Assembly: GCA_964592405.1 (NCBI GenBank)
Contig: CAZQBY010000012.1
Location: 1 to 32,508 of the forward strand
Direction: 5' to 3'
Length of the DNA: 32,508 nucleotides
Source: an uncultured archaeon
GTDB taxonomy: Archaea > Altiarchaeota > Altiarchaeia > JAFGQM01
In this document: piece after piece, positions 22,705 to 26,071 of the stretch
How the letters are laid out: the number at the start of each line of letters is the position of its first letter
Position numbering within the stretch: position 1 is the stretch's first letter
Translations under genes and position numbers: made by a program
The notes under the pieces: generated by a model
Databases searched by the model: none
The model's input: the letters and a program-made list of their open reading frames with translations, nothing else
What the model was told of the DNA's origin: nothing

Positions 22705-23820
22705 CTAAACCCACCTTTTTAGGCTTTCCGGCTTGGTAAGATAGTTGTTCAGCTCACTGACCAGGGCACAGTATTGTTTGGGATCAAGGGGTTTTTTGTA
22801 GATATCCAGCAGGTTCAGCTTGCTGATCTTTCTTATGAAGAGTTGCCACCTCCCACGGGGCACCCCACCCATGTCAAACAACAGTGAAAGCTCGAATATG
22901 TTGGTTCCGAAGCTGGCGTATATCCTGTTCAGCAACTCCATTTCAGAGCTGCTCAATCTTTCTAATGCCTTGGCTACATCATACACTTCACCCTTTTTGA
23001 AGAGAAGATATGTCTGGGATATGGAAGGCAGATAGGGCTCAAGATAAGAGCGCAGTGCCGGTATGGACACATTAAAATCGCGTGCTACCCTTTCAATGGT
23101 AATATATCTCTGCTGGTCAATGGTATATAGGTAGTATGATATGGCGGCCAGAATGCGCGCAGTGGAGATATCTAGTGAGCGGTTGACCTTATCCAATATT
23201 TCATACAACCGTGGATCATCCCCTCCGGTGTGCTTCTGCAGCAGGGTCTTGGCTCTCTCAACAGGGTTCATGCCACCCTCATAGAACCCCATATAGTCGC
23301 GAAGCGTCGAGGTGGATATCTCATAGCGCTTGGCGATGTCAGTGAGTGAGACCTCCCTGCCGTTCTTATAGAGTGAGATATAAACGGATGCCGCAGCCAT
23401 CGCGGCCGGATTTGTGTTACTTCTCTGGCTGCTGAGATTCTTATAGAGCTTGTCAAGAACCTTGAGTGCTTCTCTCAGATCTACACCAAATAGGCTGTTT
23501 TCCAATATCTTCTTCGCAGTTTCAATGGAACTTGTAGTCGGATAAGTCCGCAGATACTCGCGGAGCGTTGCAGAGGATATCCTGAATCCGGAGGAGGTGC
23601 TCTCAAGTGTTACAGACTGGCCCTTACGTGTGAGGTAGATGTGGGAAGAAGCCGCTGCCAGCGCACGGGGATGGAGGTATCCGCGTCTCTTGGATAATTC
23701 AAGGGCAAGGTTCCTGCATATCTCAAGAACCTCCTCAAGTTCCTCCCCCGCATGCTTCTCTTTTAAATATCTCGTAGCACCCCTAAGAGCAAAACTCTCT
23801 TTCATATTCCCAAAAAACAC
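22705..23820 (-). CDS. TFIIB-related protein with three tandem cyclin/HTH repeats and a probable C-terminal winged helix
   Basis: Three repeats: HPRALAAASSHI..VTLE..FRISSATLREY; NPAAMAAASVYI..VSLTDIAKRYEISTSTLRDY; TARILAAISYYL..ITIERVARDFNVSIPALRSY. Start is GTG 23820 or ATG 23805. Confidence 0.75.
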   Translation of the reverse strand: MFFGNMKESFALRGATRYLKEKHAGEELEEVLEICRNLALELSKRRGYLHPRALAAASSHIYLTRKGQSVTLESTSSGFRISSATLREYLRTYPTTSSIETAKKILENSLFGVDLREALKVLDKLYKNLSSQRSNTNPAAMAAASVYISLYKNGREVSLTDIAKRYEISTSTLRDYMGFYEGGMNPVERAKTLLQKHTGGDDPRLYEILDKVNRSLDISTARILAAISYYLYTIDQQRYITIERVARDFNVSIPALRSYLEPYLPSISQTYLLFKKGEVYDVAKALERLSSSEMELLNRIYASFGTNIFELSLLFDMGGVPRGRWQLFIRKISKLNLLDIYKKPLDPKQYCALVSELNNYLTKPESLKRWV

Positions 23821-23835
23821 CCCACTTATTGTGGC

Positions 23836-24042
23836 TCAAGATTATTGTCAAAAGTCAAGAGTCAAAAATCAAGAATTTACAAAAACCAAAAGTACTATAC
23901 TAAAAGCATAAACTATAAAAAAGCTACGTTTTTTATAGGATTTTTAGTGTTTTATAAAATATATTTTTTGAAACATTAGTATTCTGTATCGGGGCACAAA
24001 AGAGAGGCATTTTTATAAGTAGTGTCGTGATATAATCACGAC
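23836..24042. promoter_or_regulatory. Divergent AT-rich promoter region with heptamer tandem repeats and a palindromic operator
   Basis: TCAARAR x4 with 7-nt period (23848-23875); TATA-like TTTTATAA near 24011-24018; inverted repeat GTCGTGAT-ATA-ATCACGAC (24024-24042). Confidence 0.6.
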
Positions 24043-24058: not shown

Positions 24059-24622
24059 ATGACTAAGAACGGGAGGAGTGGGACTGCCGGGACTGGCGAA
24101 ACCGAGGCGTTTGTTCCACAAAAATACAGCCTCAGCCTTGTGGATCAGCTAAAGGAGCTGACCGAGGTGACTGAGAAATACAAGGCAGTGGCCGAGAACC
24201 CCTTCATGTTCTCACAGATATTTCTCGGCCTCAAGGCGGCCATAGATAATTTCAACTCACTGATCCTTGAACTGAACAAGCGCCTGGCCGCAATAGAAAA
24301 AAGGATGGCCGGCTTGGAGTCTGTAAAGAGTCATGATACCGTCACACTCAGCAAAAAGGATCAGGATGTCTTTGATTTTGTAAGTTCTCATGGAAAGGTT
24401 TCAGCCGAGGATTTGCAGAAGGAATTCAATTATAAGGGAAAGCATGCTGCCTCTGCCCGACTGAACAAGCTCTTCACCATGGGCGTGCTCGACAAGATTC
24501 ACTCTGGCAGGACTGTTTACTACATAGCTCCCAAGCCCAATCCCCATGATTCATCTGGGAGTTCATCTTGGAGTTCGTCTGGGAGGGAACCTCACTTTAC
24601 TGAAAGCAAACCACATATATAG
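24059..24622 (+). CDS. Coiled-coil plus winged-helix DNA-binding protein
   Basis: Heptad segment FNSLILELNKRLAAIEKRMAGLE, then wHTH LSKKDQDVFDFV..GKVSAEDLQKEFNY...ASARLNKLFTMGVL.K...GRTVYY; SD-like GGGTGAG upstream. Confidence 0.8.
   Translation: MTKNGRSGTAGTGETEAFVPQKYSLSLVDQLKELTEVTEKYKAVAENPFMFSQIFLGLKAAIDNFNSLILELNKRLAAIEKRMAGLESVKSHDTVTLSKKDQDVFDFVSSHGKVSAEDLQKEFNYKGKHAASARLNKLFTMGVLDKIHSGRTVYYIAPKPNPHDSSGSSSWSSSGREPHFTESKPHI
24550..24585 (+). repeat. 12-nt tandem repeat x3 in the 3' end of the wHTH gene
   Basis: TTCATCTGGGAG TTCATCTTGGAG TTCGTCTGGGAG. Confidence 0.7.
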
Positions 24623-24669
24623 CATATATAGAGCTATAGAGCTGTATTGCAACAACCCAAGCCAACCCA

Positions 24670-24890
24670 GGGGACCGGGCCCGCAGGGGTCTGGTATCAC
24701 CGTTTAAGGGAAAATCCACAGGAGGCCGGCCCGCCTTGCGGGACTGAAAGGTCCTGAACAAGGGTTTTGGATCTTTCCCAAGCGGTTTCCAGCCGGGCCA
24801 GACAGCCTGGAACGGAAACCGTCAGGCTTACCACCCCCATGCAGGCGTAAGAGCCTGAAAGCCCAACGGCGCCGCAGGGCGCCGGGCCTC
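24670..24890 (+). ncRNA. Putative highly structured non-coding RNA, family unassigned
   Basis: GC-rich intergenic block with at least six helices, GCAG/GAAA tetraloops and G-U pairs favouring the + strand; TATATA at ~24625-24630 upstream; pyrimidine tract downstream. Confidence 0.7.
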
Positions 24891-25054
24891 TACTTCTTTC
24901 GGCACACTTCCCCCTCAGCATCCCATTCAGCACATCTCATCACCAAAAATGCTTTAGCAAAATGCTTTATTAGTGCTTTTCTGGGTCTTACATCCTATTT
25001 ATCTTATTTATTATCCTGCATATTCTAATCTACAGGCCAAATCTACAGACAGAT

Positions 25055-26071
25055 ATGGATGAAATTCTCAGAAAGCTGGACTCTGGACAGAATCTTACTC
25101 CAGAGGAGGCTGAAAGAGCGATGTCAGCCATAATGGGAGGGAGAGCAAGTAATCAGGAGATTAAATCCTTTCTCTTGGGGCTTAAGGAGAAGGGTGAGAC
25201 TATTGATGAGATTGCGGCCTTTACCCGTGTCCTTATGAGATTTGCAGCCAAGGTGGAATGCACTCCTGAAATCGCAGGCCGCCTGGTGGACACCTGTGGT
25301 TCGGGCGGAGATGTGCTGGATACATTCAACATCTCAACAACTGCCGCCTTTGTTGTTGCAGGGGCAGGTGTGCCTGTCGCCAAGCACGGAAACCGCTCCG
25401 TTTCCTCCAAAAGCGGAAGTGTCGATGTCTTGGAGCAGCTTGGGGTGAATATAAATCTAAATGCTGAAAGCGTGCGCAGATGCATAGAAGAGGCAGGAAT
25501 AGGTTTCATGTATGCACCCGCATTCCATACCGCCATGAAGAATGTGGCACAAGCGCGCAGGGAACTGGCTACCCGAACAGTGTTCAACATACTGGGGCCG
25601 CTGATAAGTCCGGCAGGAGTCAAACATCAGCTTTACGGAATCTTTGACCATGCTCTTACAGAGAAGCTGGCAGGCGTGCTGAAGCGCATGGGAAGCGTGC
25701 ATGCATTGGTAGTTCACGGCATGGATGGGCTGGATGAGCTGTCCACCATTGGCAAGACGAAGGTTTCAGAGCTGAGGAACGGAGTAGTAACATCATATTA
25801 TATAGAACCAGAGGATTATGGTCTCAGAAGGACAGAACCAGAGCAGCTTCTGGGAGGAGGCCCAAAAGAAAATGCAGAGATACTTATGGCAATACTGGAG
25901 GGCGAGCATGGGCCAAAGCGTGATATCGTGGTCCTAAACGCCGGTGCTGCCATATATGCTGCAGATGCTGCACGGACACTCAAGGCCGGGATTGAGATGG
26001 CCAATGACAGCATAGATTCCGACAGAGCCATGGATAGGCTGCAGAAGCTCATAGAGGTATCGAATGGCTGA
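25055..26071 (+). CDS. trpD: Anthranilate phosphoribosyltransferase
   Basis: DTCGSGGD..TFNIST, KHGNRSVSSKSGS, RTVFNILGPL, VVHG.DGLDE. Confidence 0.97.
   Translation: MDEILRKLDSGQNLTPEEAERAMSAIMGGRASNQEIKSFLLGLKEKGETIDEIAAFTRVLMRFAAKVECTPEIAGRLVDTCGSGGDVLDTFNISTTAAFVVAGAGVPVAKHGNRSVSSKSGSVDVLEQLGVNINLNAESVRRCIEEAGIGFMYAPAFHTAMKNVAQARRELATRTVFNILGPLISPAGVKHQLYGIFDHALTEKLAGVLKRMGSVHALVVHGMDGLDELSTIGKTKVSELRNGVVTSYYIEPEDYGLRRTEPEQLLGGGPKENAEILMAILEGEHGPKRDIVVLNAGAAIYAADAARTLKAGIEMANDSIDSDRAMDRLQKLIEVSNG

Follow-up and report, generated by a model that had tools for sequence, protein, structure and literature searches.

The region at about 24650-24900 on the + strand of the window (the whole 32,508-nt stretch of altiarchaeal DNA analyzed here) is an unassigned structured RNA element and a member of an undescribed, lineage-specific RNA family tied to the gene of a winged helix-turn-helix (wHTH) regulator. 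Tentatively, and with somewhat less than an even chance of being right, we read it as a regulatory RNA that is co-transcribed with the regulator gene and pairs via a C-rich motif, with another small RNA, termed RNA-2, as the leading partner. The element forms a GC-rich island (GC 0.59-0.63 across 24650-24899, versus 0.41 upstream and 0.32-0.43 downstream) between the ORF at 24059-24622 and trpD, and is present as a single copy in its genome (G000; 1.13 Mb, 87% complete). Its + strand has an MFE of -113.8 kcal/mol (z -3.89), equalled by 0 of 200 shuffles, versus a z of only -1.18 for the - strand, for which 25 of 200 shuffles fold equally well. U-G pairs in two diverged metagenomic relatives (L209 and L213) identify the + strand as the RNA strand, in agreement with the fold z-scores, and so the strand preference voiced in the original prediction holds. 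The sequence and coordinates given there were reproduced as written, and the upstream CATATATAG (duplicated, at 24614 and 24623) and the downstream pyrimidine tract are both present. The features of the locus are the following:

24010-24019, + strand: promoter region, TATA-like TTTTTATAAG (read from the sequence)
24025-24041, + strand: 17-nt palindrome TCGTGATATAATCACGA, candidate operator (read from the sequence)
24059-24622, + strand: regulator gene, 187-aa ORF (from the ORF list)
24530-24545, + strand: first copy of the A/C-rich motif, CCCAAGCCCAATCCCC, in the coding end of the regulator gene, where it encodes PKPNP
24656-24669, + strand: A/C-rich motif, second copy, CCCAAGCCAACCCA, bordering the structured RNA on its 5' side
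24674-24695, + strand: hairpin H1, ACCGGGCCC-GCAG-GGGUCUGGU (also in G002, G001 and G004, with one-sided changes)
24696-24821, + strand: variable middle part, with a small hairpin at 24708-24717 and stems 24716-22/24734-41, 24746-54/24769-77 and 24783-90/24814-21
24827-24838, + strand: single-stranded motif CUUACCACCCCC, the proposed seed (identical in 12 of 12 distinct copies, unpaired in the consensus)
24842-24857, + strand: hairpin A, CAGGC-GUAAGA-GCCUG (compensatory changes)
24861-24887, + strand: terminal bulged hairpin, or hairpin B, GCCC-AAC-GGCGCC-GCAG-GGCGCC-GGGC (compensatory changes)
24888-24900, + strand: pyrimidine/U-rich tail CUCUACUUCUUUC, likely transcript end (CYCUAYUUCU in all copies)
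25055-26071, + strand: trpD, outside the element (PF00591, E 4.9e-95; TIGR01245, E 5.5e-125)

According to the alignment, conservation across the family is limited to the last ~85 nt (24822-24905), in which the single-stranded CUUACCACCCCC is followed by two hairpins with compensatory changes and by the U-rich tail. Over the 13 aligned rows 97.8% of the cells are paired and 3 pairs (9 cells) are changed on both sides, and no more than 47% of the cells stay paired once the partners are shifted by 1-3 columns. Homologues and covariation, which the original prediction had proposed to look for, are both found: homologues occur within the family, and the covariation score of 0.167 stands against 0.077 +/- 0.016 for shuffled alignments and is reached by 0 of 500 shuffles. 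The closing pair of hairpin A is C-G in eight copies and G-C, U-A and U-G in one copy each (G005 lacks this hairpin), while helix 3 of the terminal hairpin is 100% paired and includes two pairs that vary on both sides (C-G/U-A in 5 rows, C-G/G-C in 2 rows). Both hairpins figure in the original prediction, and their helices CAGGC/GCCTG (24842-24857) and GGCGCC/GGCGCC (24868-24883) are borne out by the compensatory changes. Termination of archaeal transcription at oligo-U is established, and the transcript likely ends in the U-rich tail at 24888-24900.

With a BLAST-type search the element was found in five further genomes of the family. The covariance model of the 3' module, R1, scores E <= 2.1e-5 in G000 and in six others of the family; the seventh, G006 (only 64% complete), reaches no more than E 0.86, and outside the family no row is better than E 0.03. 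A pattern scan of metagenomes returned 45 stretches, in seven of which R1 confirms a total of 8 matches: five are new, diverged full copies (L199, L201, L209, L193 and L213), two repeat the G005 type, and one is a second, partial match in L201, where the terminal hairpin alone (~45 nt) recurs ~800 nt downstream, past two small HTH-like ORFs and following the stop codon of another gene. The metagenomes in which the locus itself occurs (DNA runs) are hydrothermal-vent and marine; in four further DNA runs its sequence is identical, with zero variants, and hence no covariation could be gained from them.

The second terminal copy in L201 gives the layout to be expected if an element had integrated at the 3' end of an RNA gene, and the variable middle of the element could be interpreted as scars. 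We nevertheless consider it very unlikely that the locus is a DNA-level feature, i.e. a set of recombination or integration (att-like) sites or of protein-binding DNA repeats with an incidental structure: the compensatory changes together with the U-G pairs show selection for RNA pairing on one strand, genes for integrases or mobile elements do not adjoin the element in the loci read, and the genome holds a single copy.

Upstream of the 3' module the family is far more variable. Hairpin H1, as originally proposed, recurs in the same-genus genomes and in G004 with one-sided A-U/G-U changes, and the metagenome copies have related GC hairpins at its position. In the middle part, the small hairpin GGG-AAAA-UCC (24708-24717; in relatives of the type GGR-GAAA-UCC, read by eye), the stem 24716-22/24734-41 and the stem GAAAGGUCC/GGAUCUUUC (24746-54/24769-77; also the MFE pairing) have equivalents in G002, G001 and L201, as judged by eye; the stem 24783-90/24814-21 is an MFE pairing only. 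The middle ~150 nt vary even inside the genus, and the distance from the stop codon of the regulator gene to the module ranges from ~50 nt in G004 to ~300 nt in G003. The original prediction had envisaged a discrete ~220-nt RNA with a tertiary fold. Its structured RNA is real, but conservation is confined to the 3' ~85 nt and the remainder is an array of hairpins that varies. The proposed long stem GGGAAAATCCA/TGGATCTTTCCC shares bases with the hairpin at 24708-24717 and with the stem GAAAGGUCC/GGAUCUUUC, both of which are supported by relatives; the relatives offer no counterpart to the CCTTG/CAAGG helix or the pseudoknot 24728-33/24794-99; and the long-range pair 24722-27/24885-90, likewise without counterpart, competes for positions 24885-24887 with the conserved GCCC/GGGC stem (24861-64/24884-87).

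These comparisons bear on the view that the element is a compact ~220-nt tertiary fold acting as a ribozyme, an RNP scaffold or a Trp/tRNA-Trp switch for the trp operon, which we find extremely improbable. The high predicted stability of the + strand speaks for such a fold, but the middle 150 nt are not kept within the genus, the proposed pseudoknot and long-range pairs are unconserved, and the long-range pair clashes with a covarying stem. A ribozyme or riboswitch core was rejected because a conserved multi-helix architecture is absent, only the 3' module being kept and the rest varying from ~50 to ~300 nt. The trp-linked switch could draw on the presence of trpD, trpC and trpF downstream of the element in G000; however, trpD follows the element in only four of the seven element-carrying genomes of the GTDB family (G000, G001, G004 and G007, but not G002, G003 and G005), whereas the regulator gene lies upstream in 12 of 12 copies, and the gap between element and trpD consists of the U-rich tail and an AT-rich spacer of ~155 nt. 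A trp leader or riboswitch was rejected on the same grounds, namely the inconstant position before trpD and the intervening U-tract and spacer.

No family in Rfam accounts for the element. Rfam 15 gave 0 matches at the gathering score over the full window, and a permissive scan of 24400-25100 gave four sub-threshold rows at chance level only, the top one being sR20 on the minus strand (24897-24947, 19.2 bits versus a cut-off of 44). Twenty related loci, including the arrays of other families and the RNA-2 locus described below, likewise gave 0 Rfam matches, and thus the comparison with Rfam suggested in the original prediction has returned no known family for either the window or its relatives. 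ARAGORN finds no tRNA in the window. The genome encodes its RNase P RNA (RF00373) at C4:14-297 (133 bits, cut-off 84) and its SRP RNA (RF01857) at C5:41335-41601 (103 bits, cut-off 96.5). Since both are encoded elsewhere, on contigs 4 and 5, and the locus itself matches neither model, the element is neither of the two, and the lack of tRNA, SRP and RNase P signatures noted from the sequence is confirmed. The element resembles archaeal RNase P and SRP RNAs in being structured and richer in GC than the archaeal genome around it, but differs from them in having no match to either model. A C/D box sRNA, which is expected to carry C (RUGAUGA) and D (CUGA) boxes with guides of ~12 nt, was also rejected, as the + strand element has no such boxes and the sR20 row stays below its cut-off.

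All 12 distinct copies of the element begin at or inside the end of the regulator gene. The usual protein has ~155-165 aa, while the frame in G000 overruns the usual end (..GRTVYYIAPKP, at about 24545) and continues to 24622. Six aligned orthologues share 59-77% identity. The AlphaFold2 model (mean pLDDT 80.2) predicts an N-terminal helical hairpin (coiled-coil) and a C-terminal winged helix, with the wHTH at residues 94-151. Pfam and NCBIfam gave only sub-threshold HTH matches, and Foldseek searches with the model gave no row at E <= 1e-3, the top rows being of the MarR/ArsR type (BldR, SqrR, MarR). A homologue of the regulator is present in 49 of the 61 species genomes that make up the GTDB phylum (one class). 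Distant homologues are labelled Altiarchaeales, Micrarchaeota and Candidatus ainarchaeum, and the search for related loci with the regulator protein or its alignment returned near relatives only. The neighbouring eIF2-gamma gene has its closest named relatives in Candidatus Altiarchaeota (72% and 62% identity).

The layout of a TATA-like box followed by the palindrome recurs in G002, G003, G004, G001 and G007. The palindrome is likely an operator, through which the regulator gene is probably autoregulated. Since most copies of the element lack a promoter of their own, the RNA most likely arises as the 3' portion of the regulator mRNA, from which it may be released by processing. Transcription of the element and its co-transcription with the regulator gene are inferred, as are the pairing in vivo and the regulatory outcome considered below.

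The same arrangement is compatible with a cis-acting 3' UTR, in which the hairpins and the U-tract would terminate the regulator mRNA and protect it from 3' exonucleases, and the C-rich motif would be a processing or termination signal with no target in trans. Although we regard it as somewhat unlikely, this alternative gains from several observations: the element begins at the stop codon, mostly without a promoter of its own; its end, where CYCUAYUUCU comes after a GC hairpin, might be no more than a terminator; and in L201 the terminal hairpin alone recurs after the stop codon of a different gene. However, the genome has hairpin B only once and thus does not use it as a general terminator, and a terminator leaves unexplained a 12-nt single-stranded motif that is invariant across genera with diverged hairpins. 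It also fails to explain the 1000-fold local enrichment of the A/C-rich motif and the phylum-wide conservation of AACCACC despite varying hairpins, to which we now turn.

In every family member the final codons of the regulator gene spell the A/C-rich motif that is repeated downstream. The motif CCCAAG..AMCC (a CCCAAGC..AACCC motif) occurs in 33 copies in the 2,978 nt of 12 RNA regions, compared with 2 copies in the remaining 178,832 nt (both strands) of the same loci. The number of copies per RNA varies from 1 to 7, with one or two in G000, and the motifs are located between hairpins rather than inside them. A similar organization was found outside the family: of 23 non-family loci with sequence past the stop codon of the homologous regulator gene (one more locus ended at the contig edge), 22 contain AACCACC within 300 nt; the 6,287 nt after the stop have 41 copies, the other 127,774 nt of these loci 11. 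The non-family form is typically CAGCCAACCACC(C/U)CC with a GC-rich hairpin after it, a unit that is arrayed 1-4 times, and the 12-mer CAGCCAACCACC occurs 53 times in 27 genomes versus 3 times for the reversed control. Judged by these sequences, the studied family is a variant of the motif-plus-hairpin array design of the phylum.

A repeated single-stranded motif between hairpins is what would be expected of a sponge, and it is what we observe here (33 versus 2 copies) and in the 1-4-unit arrays elsewhere. The RNA might thus be a protein-binding scaffold or sponge, whose repeated motifs (CCCAAGC..AACCC here, AACCACC elsewhere) bind an RNA-binding protein and whose copy number sets the capacity. 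We judge this unlikely, even though the motif is retained while its copies vary from 1 to 7 per RNA, lies between rather than within the hairpins, and has its first copy forced into coding sequence; against it, the adjoining protein resembles a DNA-binding MarR/ArsR-type winged helix with an operator-like palindrome, and the motif is present just once or twice in G000.

To return to our preferred reading, a regulatory RNA that acts by pairing, the RNA would be modular, with one or more single-stranded A/C-rich motifs between GC-rich hairpins and a terminal module of ~85 nt. The conservation of an unpaired C-rich motif suggests base pairing, and through this exposed motif the RNA would pair in trans with G-rich 5' segments of partner transcripts. 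As expected of an accessible sRNA seed, CUUACCACCCCC is invariant and unpaired in the consensus, the exception being the MFE fold of G000 alone, in which it is partly hidden. Near-complementary 12-mers (<=1 mismatch) are as numerous in the family genomes as matches to a reversed control pattern; one variant, however, is shared by five genomes, in each of which it occupies the homologous intergenic site that corresponds to the candidate partner:

G000, contig C15, 19084-19148, - strand: RNA-2, conserved RNA of ~60 nt that carries the seed complement GGGGUGGUAAG

RNA-2 has the layout GGCGGGGUGGUAAG - stem GGAUGCC - loop UUUCCUCCAGUU - stem GGCGUUC - UUUUUCUA - ACCCCGCC, with a TATA box (TTTTTATA) ~27 nt upstream and a U-rich end. 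A covariance model, R2, detects it in seven of the eight family genomes (E <= 3.2e-10) and gives 3 weak rows outside the family (E 0.006-0.08); Rfam gave 0 matches at E <= 1 on five RNA-2 loci. The genes downstream of RNA-2 differ between genomes (aRF1 in the three of the same genus), and on this ground we take it to be a gene in its own right. The RNA-2 5' strand, GGGGUGGUAAG, is an exact 11-nt complement of the seed in five genomes, extending to 12 nt in G005 and reduced to 8 nt plus one G-U in G004. Both the seed and its complement are invariant, and RNA-2 was found via the complement search, so that the match constitutes no independent covariation. The GGUAAG part of RNA-2 falls in a predicted internal loop and is a possible toehold.

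In cofolding, the minimum-energy dimer joins the seed to the 5' strand of RNA-2 in six of seven genomes, with dG_bind from -0.9 to -8.5 kcal/mol in these six versus -0.6 to +2.4 for scrambled seeds. For G000 no dimer is predicted (dG_bind +1.6 kcal/mol), because a G000-specific hairpin covers the seed. In all seven genomes whole-RNA duplexfold of RNA-1 (the element) with RNA-2 was no better than for shuffles, and this weakness of the pairing thermodynamics is a further point in favour of the cis-acting 3' UTR. Scanning for targets of the apical loop of RNA-2 gave no conclusive result. Within the trans-pairing reading, RNA-2 would be the best partner in the family, and the internal-loop part of GGGGUGGUAAG could serve as the toehold. 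A wider extrapolation, which we put forward as doubtful, is that throughout the phylum the 3' region of an autoregulated wHTH gene bears A/C-rich seeds that capture the G-rich 5' ends of partners; here the partner would be RNA-2, whose closing helix would be opened from the toehold.

Archaeal sRNAs that mask ribosome-binding sites include sRNA41 and, with its loop 2, sRNA154 of M. mazei, as far as they are described in PMC5867862. With these the element would have in common a structured RNA with an exposed C-rich stretch able to pair with a G-rich 5' UTR or RBS, and an end formed by a hairpin and a U-tract; however, the element, unlike an intergenic RNA transcribed from a promoter of its own, lies directly 3' of the regulator gene. 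The two also show no sequence or Rfam relationship, and the best candidate partner of the element is another small RNA rather than an RBS, general targeting of RBSs being unsupported (see below). In the texts covered by a full-text literature search we found no paper describing a non-coding RNA of Altiarchaeota.

Bacterial 3'-UTR-derived sRNAs and sponges such as SroC and 3'ETS-leuZ depend on Hfq and RNase E. The element may be likened to them as an RNA from the 3' end of an mRNA that shares its terminator and may pair with a small RNA, although, given that those RNAs are bacterial and Hfq- and RNase E-dependent, the likeness is an analogy only. CsrB and RsmZ bind CsrA through GGA motifs, and they too present a short single-stranded motif between hairpins in a species-variable number of repeats; here, by contrast, the motif is A/C-rich rather than GGA, there is no known CsrA-like partner, and G000 has one or two repeats.

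The locus yields two new families ready for covariance models, RNA-1 and RNA-2, and a phylum-wide rule (a regulator gene followed by an array of AACCACC motif plus hairpin) that annotators can use together with them. If the pairing is true, it would be a simple, testable case of a transcription factor linked to control after transcription, in archaea not yet grown, and if the toehold reading is true as well, an sRNA-sRNA (sponge/anti-sRNA) circuit under transcription-factor control. Should the pairing model be wrong, the element would still be a well-defined 3' UTR/terminator module, and under either outcome the ribozyme and riboswitch readings can be dropped.

Other pairing targets were also considered. 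The C-rich motif resembles the anti-Shine-Dalgarno end of 16S rRNA, whose 3' end is the canonical GGAUCACCUCCU in this genome, and the seed could pair perfectly with sites of the type GGGGGUGGU. A general anti-Shine-Dalgarno role was rejected, since a start codon with an ORF of at least 50 aa follows GGGGTGGT at 5 of 39 sites, against 7/47, 7/52, 3/35 and 8/61 for control 8-mers, and since near-complements do not exceed the reversed control. When duplexes were scanned for genome-wide with a seed window of 21 nt, non-conserved flanks drove the best matches. A gene on contig C2 contains a perfect 13-nt complement, which was treated as chance because it is specific to G000. A tblastn search of G000 for the small ORF downstream of the complementary 5' UTR of other families found no homologue. 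Of 35 non-array matches inspected in those other families, 13 place the complement of the array motif at an RBS, or where a 5' UTR or a small transcript with a promoter begins. This is an uncontrolled count, all cases having been found via the complement search; it would seem high, given how little of such compact genomes is intergenic, and it is weakened by the fact that G-rich SD-like words are expected upstream of genes anyway. Two of the complements located at RBSs precede genes that we take, from their N-terminal sequences, to be MCM-like and CTP-synthase-like.

The proposed pairing partner of RNA-1, which we term RNA-2, is encoded by a second unannotated RNA gene of approximately 60 nt with its own TATA box:

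G000:C15:19084-19148, minus strand: RNA-2, outside the window (loci L254-L258, L265 and L272)

This gene is kept in seven of the eight genomes of the family, and the apical loop of its product is invariant (UUUCCUCCAGUU). Searches of Rfam gave no match for RNA-2. It is preceded by a conserved membrane-protein gene and, in the three genomes belonging to the genus of G000, followed by the gene for aRF1. In the genus g10, a counterpart of RNA-2 may be represented by a small unit, the predicted transcript of which starts with GGGUGGUUGGCUGAAACUGGUUUCA and ends with a run of U:

L171 (G033:C33, two tandem copies) and L279 (G047:C29): small promoter-bearing unit

Complementarity to the array motif, found together with hairpin units after the regulator homologue, is seen in three other families of the phylum:

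L164, L166, L173 and L287 (family f5), L278 and L280 (f4), L291 and L292 (f8): conserved 5' UTRs with the array-motif complement

All three families carry GGGUGGUUGG(C/U)UG, the complement of their respective array motif, at the start of these 5' UTRs or within them. The UTRs are followed in f5 by an ORF of ~39 aa with the ending ..Y.Y..LGF.P..I, and in f4 by a Cys-rich ORF.

Three further features lie within the window:

22705-23820, minus strand: ORF of 371 aa, transcribed divergently to the regulator gene
24546-24631: extension of the regulator frame, with a duplication
24897-24947, minus strand: sub-threshold C/D-box-like match (sR20)

The 371-aa ORF gave only weak matches to HTH domains; the start of a divergent gene upstream of the regulator is conserved in relatives. 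The sR20 match, at 19.2 bits (E-value 0.2), falls short of the cut-off of 44, and its box spacing looks wrong for a genuine guide RNA. The regulator frame of G000 runs ~25 codons beyond the usual ..APKP end into the duplicated CATATATAG (copies at 24614 and 24623), the second copy of which is spaced like a TATA box relative to the 5' motif of RNA-1. Relatives other than the metagenome contig L201 have an earlier stop and no duplication of CATATATAG.

L201 also carries a second, incomplete RNA-1:

L201:4790-4846: partial RNA-1 copy

This copy, ~800 nt 3' of the full one, comprises only the terminal hairpin and U-tract and is preceded by two small HTH-like ORFs, a layout that resembles an att duplication or re-use as a terminator. 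In one genome of the family, the model of the RNA-1 3' module gives a second, weak hit (G003:C95:6700-6780, L082; 22.3 bits, E-value 0.033).
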